DNA of 5,428 nt from a virus (lineage: Duplodnaviria > Heunggongvirae > Uroviricota > Caudoviricetes): IMG/VR virus record IMGVR_UViG_2778261035_000008, positions 1 to 5,428 of that record, one strand, 5' to 3'. Made by a program: the position numbers and the translations under genes. Under the pieces are notes generated by a model that worked only from the letters and a program-made list of their open reading frames with translations, was not told the DNA's origin and made no database searches. Shown here piece by piece: positions 240-5,428 of this stretch (its first letter is position 1; every line of letters starts with the position of its first letter).

Positions 240-827
240 CCGTTTAACTCCGTGGTTAATGGGTGCAACTATTTTCTGTTGGGCAGTGCATGAGACGCTA
301 TTTGACCTGACTGGTCAGTGGATGAAACAACAGATAAAGAAAAGGCGGGCAATCAGATTGCCTGTCCTGATTTGTACTCACTCATTTTCCGACTGACAGT
401 TTACATAGCCAAAACGCTATCAAATCTGACAGCCTGCTTGAGCGAGGAGCAGGCCTTGCAACTTCGTAGGCGCACTTTTAATATTTTTATGGGCAGTTAA
501 AAAACTTGTGGTATAAAGGCTCACCTACTGAACGTACTGTTGAATGAAGCGGGGTCTACAAGAATGAAAAAAATACGAACAGAACCGCCAACCGTTTCGG
601 TGAATAAATTAGTTTACGCTTATCCTGCACACTATTAATTTTAGAATCAAAAAAGACCAACTAAAATACAAAATAATTTTTACAGTGATTAGTTAATCAT
701 GAAAATATAAAGATAATCAAAACCACCACTTAAATTAACTGACACCCAAGCCTTGCAATGAAGATAACCCCCCGCAGCAGCGAGGTAATATCTTTTGTAT
801 CTATGTCGCAAAATATCACTCTTTTAC

Positions 828-856
828 TTGCTTAGAGCCCTCATAAGAGATACTTT
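828..856 (+). promoter_or_regulatory. Candidate sigma70-type promoter for the cargo gene (-35 TTGCTT 828..833, 17-nt spacer, -10 TACTTT 851..856)
   Basis: Read by eye in the AT-rich leader about 40 nt upstream of the ATG at 893. The -10 matches the consensus only at the T, A and final T positions. AT-rich DNA produces many such matches by chance. Confidence 0.2.
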
Positions 857-892
857 ATCAATCTTTATTCACGAACATCTAAATGGCAAATC

Positions 893-3055
893 ATGATAAA
901 CAATATAGTTATAAATAAAGTTGCAAGTTATAAGTCAAAATCAGAGTTAAATACTGATAAAAAAGTAAATATTATTTATGGTTTAAATGGAACAGGTAAA
1001 AGCACCTTCTCCAATTATTTCTATGACATAGATAATAAAAAATATGAGAATTGTTCCCACTCAGGTGAGTATGATGAAATCCTTGTCTACAATCAGAAAT
1101 TCATTCAGGATAACTTTTATGCAAAGGATTCTTTAAATGGAATATTTAGCTTGTCCAAGGAAAATAAAGAAGCAAAAGAAAAGGTTGAGAGCCTCACATT
1201 AGAAATAATAAAACTATCTGATGAAAAACGTGAAATTGAAAAAGAAATAACAGCACAAAACACCTCTGTTTCTGATGCAAAAAACAAAGCTCAAAATAAA
1301 ACATGGGAAATAAAAACCAACTATTCAGGTGGTGACAGGGTCCTTGAATTTTGTTTATTAGGAAAAATGGGAAGTAAAGAATCATTATTCAACCATCTTT
1401 GCTCCATTCCTTTACCTAATTCTAAGCCATCAAAAAACATCTCTGACTTAAAAGAAGAAGCAAGTGCGATTGATGGCGAAACAGCAATAAAATACAGCAT
1501 GCTAGAGGAGATTCACACCATCGTATTATCACTCGATGAAGTGGAATTACTTCAGAATATAATTGTGGGAAGTACAGATAGTCCCGTTTCATATCTTATA
1601 AGTAAGCTTCAGAACTCTGATTGGGTAAATGAAGGACTAAAATACTTAGAACAAACAGGAGATTCTCAGTGTCCATTTTGTCAATCTCAAATTATAACTG
1701 AAAACTTGGTTCAGCATATTCGCAACTATTTCGATGAAACGTATCAAGATAGTGTAAAAAAAATAAAATCCATTCAGACCAAATATAACTCATTGATTGA
1801 CAGTATTCCTTCACTGGATACTTATAAAGAATGCAAACTATCTTCAAATTATATAGTTCAATTAAGCGACTGTTACGCCCTGTTAAGAAAAGATACAGAG
1901 AGCAACTTGGAACTAATAAAGCAGAAGGTAACAAACCCCAGTACCCCAGTAACGCTGAATGATATATCCAACTCTGTTGATAACTTCAATTCATTAGTGA
2001 AATTAGTGAACAATGAAATAACCACACATAACTCAAAAATAGACAATGCAAAACACGAGCTAGAAAAAATAAAAATTTCTTTCTGGCAGCTCTTAAGGTA
2101 TGAGTATGATCAAACAATTTTAAATTTCAACGAAATAAAAGAAAGTGCAAACATTATAACAATCAGAAAAAACACCGCCAAAGATGAAAAAGAAGCAAAA
2201 ATAAAGACTAAAGATGCAGAACGGATTGAATATCAGAAATCAACAGTAAATATAGATGATGCCGTATTCAACATAAACCAAGGTTTAAATGACATCGGAA
2301 TCACAGATTTTCACATCGCAAAATATGAGGATACTCTTTATCGCATAGTACGTAATGACTCTAATTCTAAAGTATTCTCATCATTAAGTGAAGGCGAAAA
2401 AATGATTATCAGCCTTTTGTATTTTAGAGAACTATTCAGAGGTAAAAGAGTCGCCACCGAGGGTAAAACCAAAAAAATAGCTATAATCGATGATCCTGTA
2501 TCAAGCTTATCACATATTTTTGTCTACAATATAGGCCAACTAATAAAAAATGATTTCTTTAACTCTAATGAAATAGAGCAGATATTTGTTTTATCTCACA
2601 GCTTATATTTTTTCTATGAACTCGCTGATGCAAACCATGAAAGAAGAAAAGAAAATCAAAATTTATTTAGGCTTTCTAAAAACTCCAACGGCAGTTCAAT
2701 TATCTTAATGAAATACGATGAAATACAAAATGACTACCAGTCTTATTGGTCAGTAATCAATGATGACAAACAGCCTCCTGCCTTAATTGCTAACTGCATG
2801 AGAAATATAATTGAATACTTTTTCAATTTTGTACAAAAAGCAGATTTAAGCAATGTCACTCAAAAACCAGAGTTAAAAAAACCACGATTTCAATCCTTTA
2901 TTCGCTACATAAACAGAGAGTCACACTCATTAGGACAGAACATTTTTGACTTCAAGGAATTTAACTATAATGATTTCAAAGAAGGGCTTAGATTAGTGTT
3001 TGAGCACACAGGTTATTCTGCACATTATAAAAAAATGGCAAAAATAAAGAACTAA
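893..3055 (+). CDS. ABC-type ATPase with a CxxC-containing insertion and putative C-terminal nuclease domain; candidate RloC/PrrC-like anticodon nuclease (anti-phage abortive-infection protein). Function is inferred.
   Basis: 720-codon ORF, ATG 893 to TAA 3053..3055. An in-frame stop at 833..835 and no alternative start codon between make 893 the only possible start; no canonical SD. Motifs read from the translation: Walker A GLNGTGKST (aa 30-38, nt 980..1006); CPFC (aa 260-263, nt 1670..1681) in a Lys/Glu-rich region between Walker A and signature; signature-like LSEGEK (aa 498-503, nt 2384..2401); Walker B KIAIIDD(P) (aa 528-535, nt 2474..2497); H-loop-like VLSHS (His569, nt 2597..2599). 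C-terminal domain (aa ~585-720) has R637-x3-E641 (nt 2801..2815) and H678 (nt 2924..2926). Confidence that this is a real gene is ~0.9; confidence in the RloC/PrrC-like call is ~0.45. Confidence 0.8.
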   Translation: MINNIVINKVASYKSKSELNTDKKVNIIYGLNGTGKSTFSNYFYDIDNKKYENCSHSGEYDEILVYNQKFIQDNFYAKDSLNGIFSLSKENKEAKEKVESLTLEIIKLSDEKREIEKEITAQNTSVSDAKNKAQNKTWEIKTNYSGGDRVLEFCLLGKMGSKESLFNHLCSIPLPNSKPSKNISDLKEEASAIDGETAIKYSMLEEIHTIVLSLDEVELLQNIIVGSTDSPVSYLISKLQNSDWVNEGLKYLEQTGDSQCPFCQSQIITENLVQHIRNYFDETYQDSVKKIKSIQTKYNSLIDSIPSLDTYKECKLSSNYIVQLSDCYALLRKDTESNLELIKQKVTNPSTPVTLNDISNSVDNFNSLVKLVNNEITTHNSKIDNAKHELEKIKISFWQLLRYEYDQTILNFNEIKESANIITIRKNTAKDEKEAKIKTKDAERIEYQKSTVNIDDAVFNINQGLNDIGITDFHIAKYEDTLYRIVRNDSNSKVFSSLSEGEKMIISLLYFRELFRGKRVATEGKTKKIAIIDDPVSSLSHIFVYNIGQLIKNDFFNSNEIEQIFVLSHSLYFFYELADANHERRKENQNLFRLSKNSNGSSIILMKYDEIQNDYQSYWSVINDDKQPPALIANCMRNIIEYFFNFVQKADLSNVTQKPELKKPRFQSFIRYINRESHSLGQNIFDFKEFNYNDFKEGLRLVFEHTGYSAHYKKMAKIKN

Positions 3056-3100
3056 AAAACCGCAGTATATGGTTCAATGACTGAATTAATTATTCATCAC

Positions 3101-3131
3101 AGCCTATCAGGGATTTTATTATTGATAGGCT
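3101..3131. terminator. Stem-loop between convergent genes; possible intrinsic terminator for the cargo gene
   Basis: Perfect 9-bp inverted repeat AGCCTATCA (3101..3109) / TGATAGGCT (3123..3131) with a 13-nt loop, 46 nt after the cargo stop codon, followed on the + strand by ATTTATCTTATATAT. The tail is T-rich but not a clean T-run. Confidence 0.4.
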
Positions 3132-3200
3132 ATTTATCTTATATATCACCATGTTCGCATATCTGCTATTGCTTGCCCCTCCCGCTATCTAGCATGATCT

Positions 3201-3236
3201 TGACAGCTTCCGCTCGTGGCACAGAGCGGACTGTCA
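3201..3236 (-). terminator. Imperfect GC-rich hairpin downstream of gene G; possible terminator of the H-G tail fiber transcript
   Basis: TGACAG-CTTC-CGCTC / GAGCG-GA-CTGTCA around a GTGGCACA loop, about 60 nt past the G stop on the minus strand. No clear U-tract on the minus strand, so the terminator role is uncertain. Confidence 0.25.
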
Positions 3237-3292
3237 GATTAGGCTTTACTCTGTGCCATAGATATGTAAGCTCACACCAGAGCTCATACAAC

Positions 3293-3820
3293 TTATTGCG
3301 GCATTTCCGGCCATTCAGGATTTGCAGGATCCACACGACTGACCAGAACGCTGTAGCGTTCCCATGCTTCCAGTCGGCTGCGCTCCTCATCTGTTGCCAT
3401 GTTCAGTCTGACCGCGCGCTCCAGCAGCAAAATCACGGATTCAGCTTCGGAAAGTAAAGTTGCCTTTTGTGATTCTGCCAGTTGATGCTGTTCGTCTGCC
3501 GTATAAATCCGCTTAATCACGGCACCATCCTTAAACATCCATTTACCTGAGTCATCAGCACGTCGGTTGGCGGTAATATCAGGAACCTCGACAACGCTAA
3601 AACCTTCAGGGTTAAGCGTTGAAGCATCTCTGGTGATGCCGACAATTATATTATTCTCGTCGTAAACAATCTTTATCGTGTCTTCCTGAAAATTACTTAC
3701 TTCCTCATACCAGTTTTTTCCGTCTTCAGACCATAACCAGATAACATCAAAATTTTTTGTCAGTTGATATTGAGCAACAGTTTTGGGATTACCCGCAGTA
3801 ATATTTTTTAAATGCTGCAT
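3293..3820 (-). CDS. G: Tail fiber assembly (chaperone) protein, P2 gpG-like
   Basis: 175-codon ORF, ATG at 3820..3818 and TAA at 3295..3293. Translation [41 protein letters not shown]...[13 protein letters not shown] is recognised as P2 gpG-type tail fiber assembly protein (from memory). The start lies 3 nt after the H stop, with an AGGTG SD inside the last H codons, which is typical H-G coupling. Confidence 0.9.
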
Positions 3821-3823
3821 AAA

Positions 3824-5428
3824 TTACACCTGTGCGACGTTATACCATGTGCCATTGATGTATTTTTGTATTGGTCTGAATACTGCGGGGTCATCACCAT
3901 CGACTTCACCGACAATACCAAGCCCTGTAATTACATGGCCTGATTTTTCATACATCACACCTTTTTGCATAGTCTGAACAATACGTGTGCCCAGGCGAAT
4001 ATCTCGTACATAGCGAGAATCCGATTCAGCTTTGGTATATGCACCAACATCTCCCGCAGAGGGTTTGCGGGTTGTGGTGTAAAACTCTGACCAGTCAGCC
4101 TCAAATCCATAACCATCACGTGCTGAACGATAAAAAATACCGCCGTTCTTATAATTCACACGGAACTGTACGGCAGGGCAACTCCCCGCATTCATATTGA
4201 AGTGGAGGATTAATGTCGATGCACCGCTGATATCTGCATCATAAACACCGCTATTCCAGTTCCAGCCAACAGCTTTATCATTTGCAACCCTGCTTCCTGT
4301 TTGCCCTAAAGCAAATGCAGGCTGCTGGTTTTTCGTGTTGTAGTCTCGTCGCCAGCCGGGGGCATAAGCATCACCATGATTAATATAAGTGAATTGAGCG
4401 TTAGTGGTGCCGCCTCCGGTAGAAGTGCTTGGTGTTGTTACACGGATGGTCATGGCACCTTTATTACCCATAACCTCAATAACGCAACCTGCAAGATGAA
4501 TAGTTCCACAGCCAGTATCGGTAATAATTTTATTATTGCCGTATGACCATGAACATTTGCACATCCAGTACGGATGATTAAATGCACCACGGGAATCCAG
4601 CCATTCAATAAACTGAGCGGTTGTCCAGTTTCCGGCTTCAGTGCTCAAAGCGCCGCTATAAGCACGACAGGCACCGATATTTTTCGTGAAGGTATCCTTT
4701 CCCGGAATATCCGCACCGTTCTGATCTTTCTGAAGACGTTTTTCAGCATTGTCATAGGCAGACTTCACCGCTTTTGGTGTTGCGGCCAGCGTTTCCGAAT
4801 CACTGTTGGTGGCGCTACTGAGCTGGACAAGGCCTTTCCGCGCCGTGGTGGCATCCTGCGCAGTGTATTTCCCGTTAGCAAGGTCATACGCTGTCTTAAC
4901 CGCCTTTGGAGTTGCTGCAAGCGTTTCAGAATCGCTGTTGGTGGCGCTACTGAGCTGGACAAGGCCTTTTCGCGTTGTGGTGGCGTCCTGTGCAGTGTAT
5001 TTCCCGTTAGCAAGGTCATATGCTGCCTTTACCGCTTTCGGCGTTGCGGCCAGTGTTTCAGACGTGCTGTTGGTCGCACTGCTTAACTGAGTAAAACCTT
5101 TTGCGGTCAGCGAGGCGTCAGGGTGACGTCGTGACTGTTCATGTTCTGCAATTTTGTCATCAACGTAATCCTGCGTTGCCATCACCGTTGTGGTGTCAAT
5201 GGTCAGCTCCACTGAGGCCACACTGCTGACGATGATGACCATGCGGCAGGTCTGCGAACGCCCTGAGCCTTCGGCAAGGGCTGGCTTATAACTTTCGGCC
5301 ATGTTCGCCACGGCAATTAACGTTCCCGCATCATCGTACAGGCCAAGCTCTCGCATCCAGAAACCGCCCACCTCCGGCGGAATAACCAGCTCTGCGATAA
5401 TATAATTACTGTTTCGTTTGTCCTGGCT
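3824..5428 (-). CDS. H: Tail fiber protein (P2 gpH-like N-terminal region, divergent C-terminal receptor-binding region); 5' end lies beyond the window's right edge
   Basis: Minus-strand frame is open from the window edge (5428) to TAA at 3826..3824. The ORF track's M at 5371 is a GTG codon; the frame upstream reads SQDKRNSNYIIAELVIPPEV without a stop, so the true start is outside the window. The part reading ...GGFWMRELGLYDDAGTLIAVANMAESYKPALAEGSGR...TIDTTTVMATQDYVDDKIAEH matches P2 gpH as I recall it, followed by tandem fiber repeats (SSATNSxSETLAATPKAVKxAYD) and a distinct C-terminal domain. Confidence 0.9.
   Translation of the reverse strand, partial: SQDKRNSNYIIAELVIPPEVGGFWMRELGLYDDAGTLIAVANMAESYKPALAEGSGRSQTCRMVIIVSSVASVELTIDTTTVMATQDYVDDKIAEHEQSRRHPDASLTAKGFTQLSSATNSTSETLAATPKAVKAAYDLANGKYTAQDATTTRKGLVQLSSATNSDSETLAATPKAVKTAYDLANGKYTAQDATTARKGLVQLSSATNSDSETLAATPKAVKSAYDNAEKRLQKDQNGADIPGKDTFTKNIGACRAYSGALSTEAGNWTTAQFIEWLDSRGAFNHPYWMCKCSWSYGNNKIITDTGCGTIHLAGCVIEVMGNKGAMTIRVTTPSTSTGGGTTNAQFTYINHGDAYAPGWRRDYNTKNQQPAFALGQTGSRVANDKAVGWNWNSGVYDADISGASTLILHFNMNAGSCPAVQFRVNYKNGGIFYRSARDGYGFEADWSEFYTTTRKPSAGDVGAYTKAESDSRYVRDIRLGTRIVQTMQKGVMYEKSGHVITGLGIVGEVDGDDPAVFRPIQKYINGTWYNVAQV
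4745..5101. repeat. Direct tandem repeat, 132-bp period, about 2.7 copies, inside tail fiber gene H (encodes 44-aa fiber repeats)
   Basis: Copies at 4970..5101, 4838..4969 and a partial copy at 4745..4837. The 132-bp period was verified by matching anchors (ACCGCTTTTGGTGT at 4767..4780 vs ACCGCCTTTGGAGT at 4899..4912 vs ACCGCTTTCGGCGT at 5031..5044). The protein repeats are KGFTQLSSATNSTSETLAATPKAVKAAYDLANGKYTAQDATTTR / KGLVQLSSATNSDSETLAATPKAVKTAYDLANGKYTAQDATTAR / KGLVQLSSATNSDSETLAATPKAVKSAYD. Confidence 0.85.

Follow-up and report, generated by a model that had tools for sequence, protein, structure and literature searches.

RloC is a known anti-phage suicide enzyme encoded by a single gene. 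The family and its zinc hook were described in 2008 (Davidov & Kaufmann; PMC2610378), and the hook is thus an already known feature of such proteins. In Geobacillus kaustophilus RloC (GkaRloC), added Zn2+ inhibits the wild-type enzyme but not a hook mutant, the hook mutant C291G is hyperactive and has lost its Zn2+ sensitivity, and mutation of any residue of the catalytic triad abolishes activity (PMC2610378). The triad of the anticodon nuclease (ACNase) follows the pattern R-X3-E-X36-52-H, often with a Ser preceding the His (PMC2610378). The ATPase of RloC is DNA dependent and activates the nuclease (PMC3458546), and RloC is activated in its natural host by inducers of double-strand breaks (PMC3874168). 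Zinc at the hook, de-repression of the nuclease by hook mutations, a DNA-dependent ATPase, and excision of the tRNA wobble nucleotide are known only for GkaRloC and the Acinetobacter baylyi enzyme, AbaRloC (PMC2610378, PMC3458546, PMC3874168).

We analyzed a 5,428-nt window of a Caudoviricetes record that encodes a 720-aa protein with parts in common with several such systems. The protein has a Rad50-type ATPase head from which an antiparallel coiled coil emerges, and its head, arm, and candidate hook resemble those of Rad50, SbcC, and T4 gp46, but it is not a Rad50 orthologue. Rad50 and SbcC work with a partner nuclease (Mre11/SbcD), whereas the 720-aa protein lacks one and carries a predicted tRNase domain fused at its C terminus. 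The arm of Rad50 and SbcC is far longer, and that of the 720-aa protein is irregular with an extra helical hairpin. Rad50 and SbcC act in DNA repair; the output here would, by analogy, be translation shut-off.

PrrC shares the ABC-ATPase N-domain, the same Arg/Glu/His ACNase triad, and the character of an abortive-infection tRNase. Unlike this protein with its 459-aa insert, PrrC lacks both the arm and the hook, and it is always found within a silencing type I restriction-modification (R-M; hsd/prr) locus, whereas no R-M neighbor is present here. A PrrC assignment was rejected, given that the PADLOC match reached only E = 1e-5 over aa 17 to 81, that the insert is present, and that R-M genes are absent. 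Lamassu LmuB, PARIS AriA, and retron-associated SMC-like ATPases are likewise SMC/Rad50-like phage defense sensors with coiled-coil inserts and are structural neighbors of the head. They rely on separate effector proteins, however, and have neither a CxxC hook motif nor an ACNase domain.

Prophage context and family assignment

The rloC-like gene (nt 893 to 3055, plus strand, as for all protein features below; 720 aa, stop codon included) was taken from the open reading frame list and encodes a putative fusion of ABC-ATPase, arm-and-hook, and anticodon-nuclease parts. It is the sole cargo gene of a low-GC island (nt 453 to 3206, no strand assigned) in a P2-like prophage, located at a variable site between a tail sheath gene (minus strand, 5' end at about nt 239) and a tail-fibre assembly gene (nt 3293 to 3820, minus strand). 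GC content is 30 to 35% inside the island versus 45 to 55% outside. Pfam matched Caudo_TAP and tail-fibre domains on the flank, and the flanking stretches (nt 1 to 452 and nt 3207 to the end) keep 94 to 98% identity in prophages in which SMEK or Shedu genes take the place of this cargo. In Escherichia coli PSS-11 the gene at this site is annotated as an “AAA family ATPase” (WP_112911329.1). No R-M genes were found in the window or in an 11-kb homologous locus, and the island contains neither a partner effector gene nor an Mre11/SbcD gene, its flanks being phage tail genes. An Rfam search of the window found nothing, and promoter-like sites in the window occurred at chance level (13 found versus 12.7 expected). 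The gene travels alone in a mobile element and is not linked to a silencer, a situation that the 2012 paper of Klaiman et al. notes for rloC.

The motifs of the ATPase head lie on either side of a long insert. The Walker A motif (P-loop) GLNGTGKST occupies aa 30 to 38 (nt 980 to 1006), and its residues G30, N32, and K36 do not vary across 120 homologues; the ABC signature motif LSEGEK, with S499, E500, and E502 invariant in the same set, occupies aa 498 to 503 (nt 2384 to 2401). The two motifs are 459 aa apart. The Walker B/D-loop sequence IAIIDDPVSSLS (aa 529 to 540) and the region that follows, up to the switch histidine H569, extend over nt 2477 to 2599, with Walker B proper (IAIIDDP) at aa 529 to 535 (nt 2477 to 2497); D533, D534, P535, S538, S540, and H569 are invariant in the 120 homologues. 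These results verify the coordinates that the original prediction had given for the open reading frame, Walker A, the CxxC motif, and the signature/Walker B block, and they bear out its view that an insertion splits the head between aa 30 to 38 and aa 498 to 535. The span that it had marked, nt 1160 to 2383, corresponds to aa 90 to 497.

Family models place the whole protein, insert included, with RloC. Pfam AAA_13 matched end to end (aa 10 to 699; E = 2.9e-107), and the insert and the C-terminal domain also scored separately (4.6e-36 and 2e-12, respectively). COG4694/AAA_13 is the family of the Geobacillus kaustophilus and Acinetobacter baylyi RloC proteins (Davidov & Kaufmann 2008; Klaiman et al. 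2012, 2013). The PADLOC model of PDC-S06, a candidate defense system of one gene (PDLC04886), matched aa 1 to 717 of 720 with an E value of 1.4e-254, and homologues 57 to 59% identical bear the names “Translation-disabling ACNase RloC” or “wobble nucleotide-excising tRNase”; a Streptococcus prophage gene with only 25% identity also carries an RloC annotation. All RloC-defining sequence features of the 2008 description (PMC2610378) are present and conserved in the 720-aa protein.

The protein also differs from the experimentally studied enzyme. At 720 aa it lies at the short end of the RloC family (GkaRloC has 804 aa), its hook reads CPFCQ rather than CAFCG, and its subfamily has a catalogue entry of its own, PADLOC PDC-S06. 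Outside the hook motif, its insert has no pairwise-detectable similarity to that of GkaRloC. The latter was reconstructed from an OCR reading of the 2008 supplementary alignment. A BLASTP comparison of the 720-aa protein with this OCR-derived insert gave no meaningful alignment. With the insert as the query, no relative was found in genome contigs and no protein at E ≤ 0.001, the query text being probably noisy or composed of mixed alignment rows. A family HMM gave a collinear alignment in which CAFC falls on CPFC, but this alignment is weak (24.6 bits) and its compositional bias is high. The link to GkaRloC is therefore made through the family models and the 2008 alignment, from which the orthologue Q369M3_9GAMM scored 108.8 bits with our family profile.

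Based on these features and on those of the hook and arm given below, we consider it probable (about 0.8) that this prophage cargo gene specifies an anticodon nuclease of the RloC family, a self-contained enzyme of abortive infection whose CPFC loop is the family zinc hook.

The CPFC loop and its conservation

The hook loop comprises aa 256 to 269 (nt 1658 to 1699) and is supported by conservation and by the Rad50 and GkaRloC alignments. It contains the proposed zinc ligands in C260-P-F-C263 (nt 1670 to 1681). CPFC is the only CxxC in the 720-aa protein, and across 117 homologues the motif lies at 0.489 ± 0.008 of the distance from Walker A to the signature, in agreement with the prediction of a CxxC near the middle of the insertion. 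All 117 scored sequences have CP[FL]C once per insert (CPFC in 113, CPLC in 4). Among 120 representatives that share 28 to 58% identity and have a mean column identity of only 30%, C260, P261, and C263 never vary, and F262 is kept in at least 90%. Phage homologues only 23 to 27% identical retain the motif as CPYC. The hook region (aa 233 to 282) forms an island of conservation, with a value of 0.50 versus 0.33 to 0.37 in the arms, and the conserved pattern around the loop is W244-x3-G248-x11-C260-P-F-C263-Q. Because a single CxxC is in itself unremarkable (one occurs in 7.7% of shuffled versions of the protein and falls within the central tenth of the insert in 0.6%), it is on account of this conservation that we regard the motif as real.

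Comparisons with known hooks point the same way. In the 2008 supplementary alignment (PMC2610378), Q369M3_9GAMM, which belongs to the same subfamily as the 720-aa protein, has its sequence “...NNDWVNQGRNY GSDSRCPFCQ...” aligned with the hook of Geobacillus RloC, “...LQEWVREGLGL HKGLECAFCG...”. When a profile of the hook region was searched against 177,635 PDB sequences, two matches fell below E = 0.01, and both were the zinc hook of Pyrococcus furiosus Rad50 (6zff_A, E = 0.0032; 1l8d_A, E = 0.0041), with “kCPFCqq” aligned on “KCPVCGR.” These matches are marginal (E of about 0.003 to 0.004) and are partly due to the CPxC motif and helical composition. Taken with the RloC motifs, the invariant CPFC, and the covariation turn described below, the Rad50-hook matches support the original interpretation of the region as a Rad50/RloC-like zinc-hook candidate.

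Topology of the arm

A helical arm of about 360 residues (aa 88 to 448) splits the ATPase head. In the AlphaFold2 (AF2) model, assigned with DSSP, a long N-arm helix leaves the head (aa 88 to 145, nt 1154 to 1327; pLDDT of about 90) and is followed by an irregular segment of short helices and loops (aa 146 to 255, nt 1328 to 1657). This segment ends in N-S-D-W244-V-x-x-G248, in which W244 is invariant and G248 is conserved in at least 90% of the 120 homologues. Beyond the hook, the C-arm (aa 270 to 448, nt 1700 to 2236; pLDDT mostly 84 to 92) consists of a return helix (aa 270 to 304), an extra helical hairpin (about aa 288 to 357), and a long helix back to the head (aa 359 to 448). The hook itself is a loop by DSSP with a pLDDT of about 63 in the full-length model, and in an AlphaFold model of the excised aa 225 to 395 the CPFC part fell below 50. 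A Foldseek search of this excised model against the PDB returned generic helical bundles only (E ≥ 0.5).

The insertion had been proposed to be a coiled coil rich in Lys, Glu, Asn, and Ile. Heptad-like periodicity exceeded the 99th percentile of shuffles at aa 81 to 145, 278 to 305, and 350 to 448, reached only the 95th percentile at aa 273 to 277, and was never above the 99th percentile within aa 146 to 272. The coiled-coil appearance is thus limited to about half of the insert, and the arm as a whole is helical but irregular, with its extra hairpin, rather than a simple coiled coil. The compositional part of the proposal did not stand, as the insert is not distinguished by its contents of Lys (10.2 versus 10.0%), Asn (8.9 versus 10.0%), and Ile (9.8 versus 10.0%), and Glu alone is enriched (8.7 versus 6.5%). 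We attribute the richness in these residues to the AT-rich gene (30 to 35% GC).

Covariation across 120 representatives showed how the two halves of the arm pair. The final run left gap states out of the mutual information and removed columns with more than 15% gaps; with gap states included, positions 146, 147, 255, and 266 were gap-driven hubs, and the main ladder was the same after their removal. The N-arm helix (aa 88 to 145) pairs antiparallel with aa 397 to 448 (e.g., 101-443, 140-405, and 144-397), and aa 146 to 255 pair with C-arm residues 358 to 408 (e.g., 181-396, 200-384, 206-370, and 215-358). Further pairs involving the C-arm region were 222-287 (z = 13.2), 232-279, 327-368, and 220-342. 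In order, the ladder runs from 94/101 with 440 to 447 down to 215 with 358, and then through 222 with 287, 232 with 279, and 257 with 286. The Spearman correlation between i and j for the top 20 pairs was -0.33 versus a null value of +0.45 and was reached by 0 of 2,000 random sets, in a home-made analysis that controls incompletely for phylogeny and in which the choice of the 495-585 band followed inspection of the data. The chain therefore reverses at about aa 257 to 279, at the CPFC loop, and the halves of the arm are antiparallel. Covariation of N-arm and C-arm lengths was not significant (Pearson, 0.34; Spearman, 0.14), and this test was underpowered because lengths hardly vary in the subfamily.

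The absence of heptads from aa 146 to 255, together with the extra hairpin at aa 288 to 357, suggests that the hook sits on an irregular helical cap rather than at the end of a coiled coil of two strands. With this geometry, the short-armed PDC-S06 subfamily (about 720 aa, CPFCQ) might form no Rad50-style zinc bridge. Its CPFC loop, seated on a compact helical cap (aa 222 to 255, 270 to 304, the extra hairpin at 288 to 357, and the top of the helix at 359 to 384), could then serve as a latch in cis, or else as a switch that responds to redox state or metal and to which the tRNase reacts. We regard this as rather improbable. In favor of the hook, no Cys or His of the insert other than C260 and C263 is invariant, and a site with four ligands would thus seem to need a second chain.

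Less likely still is that CPFC makes up one half of a structural zinc site within a single chain, a knuckle or ribbon in a globular subdomain of the insert, and no interchain hook. The short helices and loops predicted on the N-terminal side (aa 146 to 255) would suit such a subdomain, Pfam zf-Di19 matched aa 259 to 278 weakly and below threshold (E = 0.03 to 0.07), and C154 is a Cys in 75% of homologues. However, C154 is missing in the other 25%, H275, C314, and C327 lack conservation, and no zinc-finger family matched at its threshold. Moreover, the covariation around the motif is that of a helix-turn-helix hairpin and not of a knuckle, and Rad50 hooks are the nearest sequences in the PDB.

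Our PDB searches found no structure of an RloC protein, and the arm topology derived from covariation (the ladder, the turn at CPFC, and the hairpin at aa 288 to 357) is therefore a small piece of new information. It could guide the design of constructs for structural work and of C260/C263 and E641/H678 mutants.

The C-terminal domain and the proposed mechanism

The C-terminal residues 601 to 720 (nt 2693 to 3052) form a predicted HEPN-type anticodon-nuclease domain, which carries the RloC triad pattern and is matched by positions 592 to 709 of AAA_13. The triad reads R637-x3-E641-x36-(S677)H678, as in the published pattern (PMC2610378), with R637-NII-E641 at nt 2801 to 2815 and R671-x6-(S677)H678 at nt 2903 to 2926. 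R637 is invariant and E641, R671, R675, S677, and H678 are conserved in at least 90% of the 120 homologues. Judging from these residues, the effector is predicted to be an RNase, namely, a tRNA anticodon nuclease, and not a DNase.

This complete, conserved triad weighs against the view that the protein is a DNA-sensing SMC/Rad50-like defense ATPase of the Lamassu LmuB or PARIS AriA kind, with a regulatory or partner-binding C terminus in place of a tRNase. Foldseek matched LmuB and retron SMC-like ATPases, and some distant phage homologues appear to lack the triad histidine. In PADLOC, however, LmuB (E = 1e-7) and AriA (E = 2e-5) matched only ATPase parts and did so far more weakly than PDC-S06 and Pfam AAA_13 matched the protein, and we rejected both assignments. 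The island also lacks the partner effector gene of such a system, and we consider this view very unlikely.

We give even less credence to a metal-free reading in which CP[FY]C is a glutaredoxin-type dithiol/disulfide switch that activates the nuclease under oxidative stress. C-P-F/Y-C is the classical active-site motif of glutaredoxins and thioltransferases, and pig thioltransferase (1kte, “TCPFCRK”) weakly matched the hook profile. This match was nonsignificant (E = 0.3) and ranked below the Rad50 hooks, and the AF2 model is free of beta strands from aa 67 to 472 and hence has no thioredoxin beta-alpha-beta fold. The reported inhibition by Zn2+ of GkaRloC with an intact hook only (PMC2610378) also speaks against a metal-free switch. 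A functionless CxxC, as arises by chance in 7.7% of shuffled versions, can be dismissed given the invariance of the motif in 120 homologues at 28 to 58% identity and its retention in phage proteins at 23 to 27%.

From the experiments on Geobacillus and Acinetobacter RloC, we infer that the 720-aa protein binds zinc, is bridged as a dimer, senses DNA, cuts tRNA, and protects against phages, and the following mechanism is modeled on those experiments. In a resting dimer, one Zn2+ ion shared by two CPFC pairs would keep the nuclease silent. On binding of the heads to DNA ends or breaks, for example those of an infecting phage or those caused by genotoxic stress, the ATPase would be switched on and the arms and hook rearranged. 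The nuclease would thereby be released, tRNA would be cut at the wobble position, and translation would stop. The original suggestion that this protein senses DNA ends, rather than being a constitutively active nuclease, would agree with the published biochemistry of RloC (PMC3458546, PMC3874168).

The hook of RloC, its regulatory role, and the sensing of DNA breaks were proposed and partly tested between 2008 and 2013, and our analysis thus opens no new question about them. If instead the short-armed subfamily formed no zinc bridge, a P2-type prophage would sense a specific superinfection signal, such as incoming linear phage DNA ends, rather than general DNA damage. For the RloC-type reading that we favor, the gain is one of annotation, in that a gene labeled “AAA family ATPase” or “PDC-S06” becomes readable as an RloC-type anticodon nuclease with a regulatory zinc hook. 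Because the same site elsewhere holds Shedu or SMEK-domain genes, this reading suggests that P2-like prophages are able to equip the host with a suicide enzyme that shuts off translation.

Prophage setting and family of the cargo gene

The window comes from a P2-like prophage. The start of a tail sheath gene (minus strand) lies at its left end, and to the right are a tail-fibre assembly gene (3293..3820, minus strand; Caudo_TAP) and a tail-fibre gene (3824..5371 and beyond, minus strand, with the window ending inside the gene) that matches Pfam Phage_tail_fib, three Phage_fiber_2 repeats, and gp37_C. Amid these tail genes sits one 720-aa ORF (893..3055, plus strand), in an island with a GC content of 30 to 35% versus 45 to 55% in the flanks. 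The flanks (1-452 and 3207-end) share 94 to 98% identity with other E. coli prophages. Because prophages with near-identical flanks carry differing genes at the same site (a SMEK-domain gene, a Shedu nuclease, a gene of the LPO_1073/Vpar_1526 family, or a “lysogenic conversion protein”), we interpret ∼453..3206 as a swappable cargo island. In P2-like prophages, the site is bounded by the tail sheath gene and the tail-fibre assembly gene, a position that corresponds to the Z/fun site of phage P2. A GC-rich hairpin with a terminator-like score on both strands (344..366, plus; 362..348, minus) lies just within the conserved left flank, adjoining the island border, and possibly serves to insulate the cargo gene against the tail operon. 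Repeated DNA also occurs inside the tail-fibre gene (4704..5428); positions 4745-5105 share 83 to 91% identity with shifted copies in the homologous gene of three other loci (L001 to L003), and these shifted repeats correspond to the three Phage_fiber_2 repeats.

The cargo gene is already recognized by Pfam and PADLOC. Pfam AAA_13, a model that itself includes the insert and C-terminal domain, matches aa 10-699 (E 2.9e-107), as well as the insert alone (E 4.6e-36) and the C-terminal domain alone (2e-12). PADLOC PDC-S06, a candidate single-gene defence family, matches end to end (E 1.4e-254). Searches of NCBIfam and direct sequence searches of the PDB with the window protein returned nothing useful. 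Homologues at 57 to 59% identity carry the name “Translation-disabling ACNase RloC” at NCBI or “wobble nucleotide-excising tRNase” at JGI. By the 2008 definition of Davidov and Kaufmann, RloC has ABC-ATPase motifs like those of PrrC, a coiled-coil/zinc-hook insert carrying CX2C at its centre, and a C-terminal triad, Arg-X3-Glu-X36-52-His, in which Ser often precedes His (PMC2610378). The window protein has R637-NII-E641 and, after exactly 36 residues, S677-H678. R637 does not vary among 120 cluster representatives (28 to 58% identity; mean column identity, 30%), in which E641, R671, R675, S677, and H678 are at least 90% conserved. HEPN RNases carry the signature Rx4-6H, which R671-x6-H678 fits. 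RloC and PrrC are among the HEPN proteins listed in bioRxiv 10.1101/2024.10.26.620412. An E. coli AAA-ATPase predicted by PADLOC to be antiphage (PDC-S06), WP_032269946.1, is a likely true positive of the model in bioRxiv 10.1101/2025.01.08.631966. This case hints that the DefenseFinder RloC model may overlook part of the PDC-S06 family.

Conservation of the CPFC motif and comparison with known zinc hooks

The original prediction was of a Rad50/RloC-like zinc hook in an insert splitting the ATPase head. Rechecked in the window sequence, its coordinates were all correct: Walker A at aa 30-38, C260-P-F-C263 as the sole CxxC (nt 1670-1681), the signature LSEGEK at aa 498-503, and Walker B IAIIDDP at aa 529-535. 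A CxxC occurred in 7.7% of shuffles of the protein, and one in the central 10% of the insert in 0.6%; the lone motif is not significant by itself, and conservation decides. C260-P-F-C263-Q is invariant in 64 homologues (57 to 99% identity). Across the 120 representatives only 22 columns show no variation, and these include C260, P261, and C263 alongside residues of Walker A, the signature, and Walker B, the switch His, and the nuclease Arg. Of 117 scored sequences, 113 have CPFC and 4 have CPLC, always 0.489 ± 0.008 of the way from Walker A to the signature, and a CPYC variant is kept in phage proteins at 23 to 27% identity. The hook region forms a conserved island (conservation, 0.50 versus 0.33 to 0.37 in the arms). 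C260 and C263 are the only invariant Cys/His residues in the insert (C154 is 75% conserved; H275, C314, and C327 are unconserved), so that a tetrahedral site would presumably have to take two ligands from a second chain, as in Rad50.

In the supplementary alignment of the 2008 study, the row for Geobacillus kaustophilus RloC (GkaRloC) reads '...DLQEWVREGLGL / HKGLECAFCGNKI...' and that for the orthologue Q369M3_9GAMM '...SNNDWVNQGRNY / GSDSRCPFCQNTLDDEFKKELERYFDD...' (PMC2610378); the corresponding stretch of the window protein is '...QNSDWVNEGLKYLEQTGDSQCPFCQSQIITENLVQHIRNYFDE...'. The Q369M3 fragment scored 108.8 bits with a profile built from the 120 representatives. For the Gka fragment, the alignment to this profile was collinear (profile positions 92-442; CAFC opposite CPFC) and reached only 24.6 bits, with strong compositional bias, and BLASTP of the window protein against the Gka insert fragment found nothing. 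Together, these results place the homology of the insert at the family-profile level, with recognizable conservation limited to a W-V-x-x-G...C-x-F-C...[HY]-F core. A hook-region profile (126 positions, aa 205-330, 60 sequences) searched against all 177,635 distinct PDB sequences gave exactly two matches below E 0.01, 6zff_A (0.0032) and 1l8d_A (0.0041). Each is the zinc hook of Pyrococcus furiosus Rad50, aligned with 'kCPFCqq' on 'KCPVCGR' and ∼35 residues on either side, a match that appears specific though marginal. Motif conservation, the 2008 alignment, and these PDB matches support the predicted hook.

Predicted arm topology

The full-length AlphaFold2 model (mean pLDDT, 79.7; pTM, 0.45) comprises an ABC head, a 58-residue helix (aa 88-145), short helices (aa 149-255), a loop with CPFC (aa 256-269; pLDDT, ∼63), further helices (aa 270-279, 282-304, 308-313, and 315-347), a loop (aa 348-358), helices returning to the head (aa 359-384 and 386-448), and a helical C-terminal domain. 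An excised-fragment model was uninformative at the hook.

Covariation was computed across the 120 representatives as mutual information with average-product correction, excluding gap states and columns with >15% gaps. An ordered antiparallel ladder emerges from the top long-range pairs, running from 94/101 with 440-447, 140 with 405, 144 with 397, 174 with 406, and 181 with 396, through 189 with 382, 200 with 384, 206 with 370, and 212-215 with 358-360, to 222 with 287 (the strongest; z, 13.2), 227/231/232/242 with 279, and 257 with 286. For 13 of the 20 highest-ranking pairs, i+j lies within 495-585, a band picked post hoc (4.8 pairs expected). Over all 20 of these pairs, the Spearman correlation of i and j is −0.33 versus a null mean of +0.45 (reached by 0 of 2,000 random sets). 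The arms are thus antiparallel partners, with the chain reversing between ∼257 and 279, at the CPFC loop. Additional pairs (327 with 368 and 220 with 342) indicate that residues 288-357 form an extra hairpin of helices, which packs against the top of the return helix. Residue types (E/K at 222 with S/K/D at 287; V/L/I at 232 with Y/L/F at 279) make it plausible that many pairs are salt bridges or core contacts. Covariation “hubs” occur at aa 146-149, 231-232, 255, and 266 (nt ∼1328-1339, 1583-1588, 1655-1657, and 1688-1690); positions 146, 147, 255, and 266 are gaps in 27 to 36% of 182 combined homologues, so the hub signal partly reflects subfamily indels rather than contacts.

The idea of a hook at the apex therefore holds in the topological sense, with the covariation turn at CPFC, but over its distal half the arm forms an irregular helical cap, not a coiled coil of two strands. 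A simple heptad score was above the 99th percentile of shuffles at aa 81-145, 278-305, and 350-448 but not at 146-272 (aa 273-277 reach only the 95th percentile). The K/E/N/I richness noted for the insert proved to be protein-wide.

Distribution, novelty, and proposed function

Among 5,426 complete E. coli genomes, only 2 have the window gene, each at the P2-like prophage locus. Relatives on 224 plasmids (162 conjugative) suggest broad horizontal spread of homologues across phyla. Lactococcus lactis/cremoris plasmids (matches H32 to H35), classic carriers of Abi systems, encode a full-length homologue at 49% identity. A Vibrio vulnificus homologue (locus L004, 5001-7157; 59% identity) lies inside a small island, downstream of two co-oriented genes (1565-4719; 551 and 499 aa; one-base overlap) that had no match in Pfam and could make up an adjacent unknown defence system. 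Homologues in Firmicute phages (23 to 27% identity; L009 2929-5190 in Streptococcus phage Javan105, L011 953-3232, and L012 917-3199), one annotated “translation-disabling ACNase RloC,” retain a W..G..CPYC hook along with the Walker motifs. At the C terminus they have R-x3-[DE] ... 'R-I-S-D-G' or 'G-M-S-D-G' versus 'R-E-S-H-S' in the window protein, so the catalytic histidine seems absent, and these proteins may be inactive or have a different effector chemistry.

The hook interpretation re-finds a family feature published in 2008, in an alignment that already included this subfamily (PMC2610378), and rloC was noted as prophage cargo in 2012 (PMC3458546). Modestly new are the rare E. coli P2-site allele and the covariation-based arm topology with its extra hairpin.

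In GkaRloC, triad mutants are dead and the hook mutant C291G has far higher activity and loses Zn2+ inhibition (PMC2610378). The RloC ATPase is DNA dependent, prefers DNA ends, and turns on the nuclease, and hook mutations bypass the need for this activation (PMC3458546). Acinetobacter baylyi RloC is activated by double-strand-break inducers and cuts tRNA-Glu and tRNA-Gln (PMC3874168). Because the window island is one gene and the neighbours of the Vibrio homologue differ, a partner gene is probably not needed. By homology, the resting P2-prophage protein would most likely be silent, with its hooks zinc-linked; its heads would sense DNA ends or breaks and then hydrolyze ATP, releasing the HEPN tRNase to excise the wobble nucleotide, which would stop a superinfecting phage through abortive infection.
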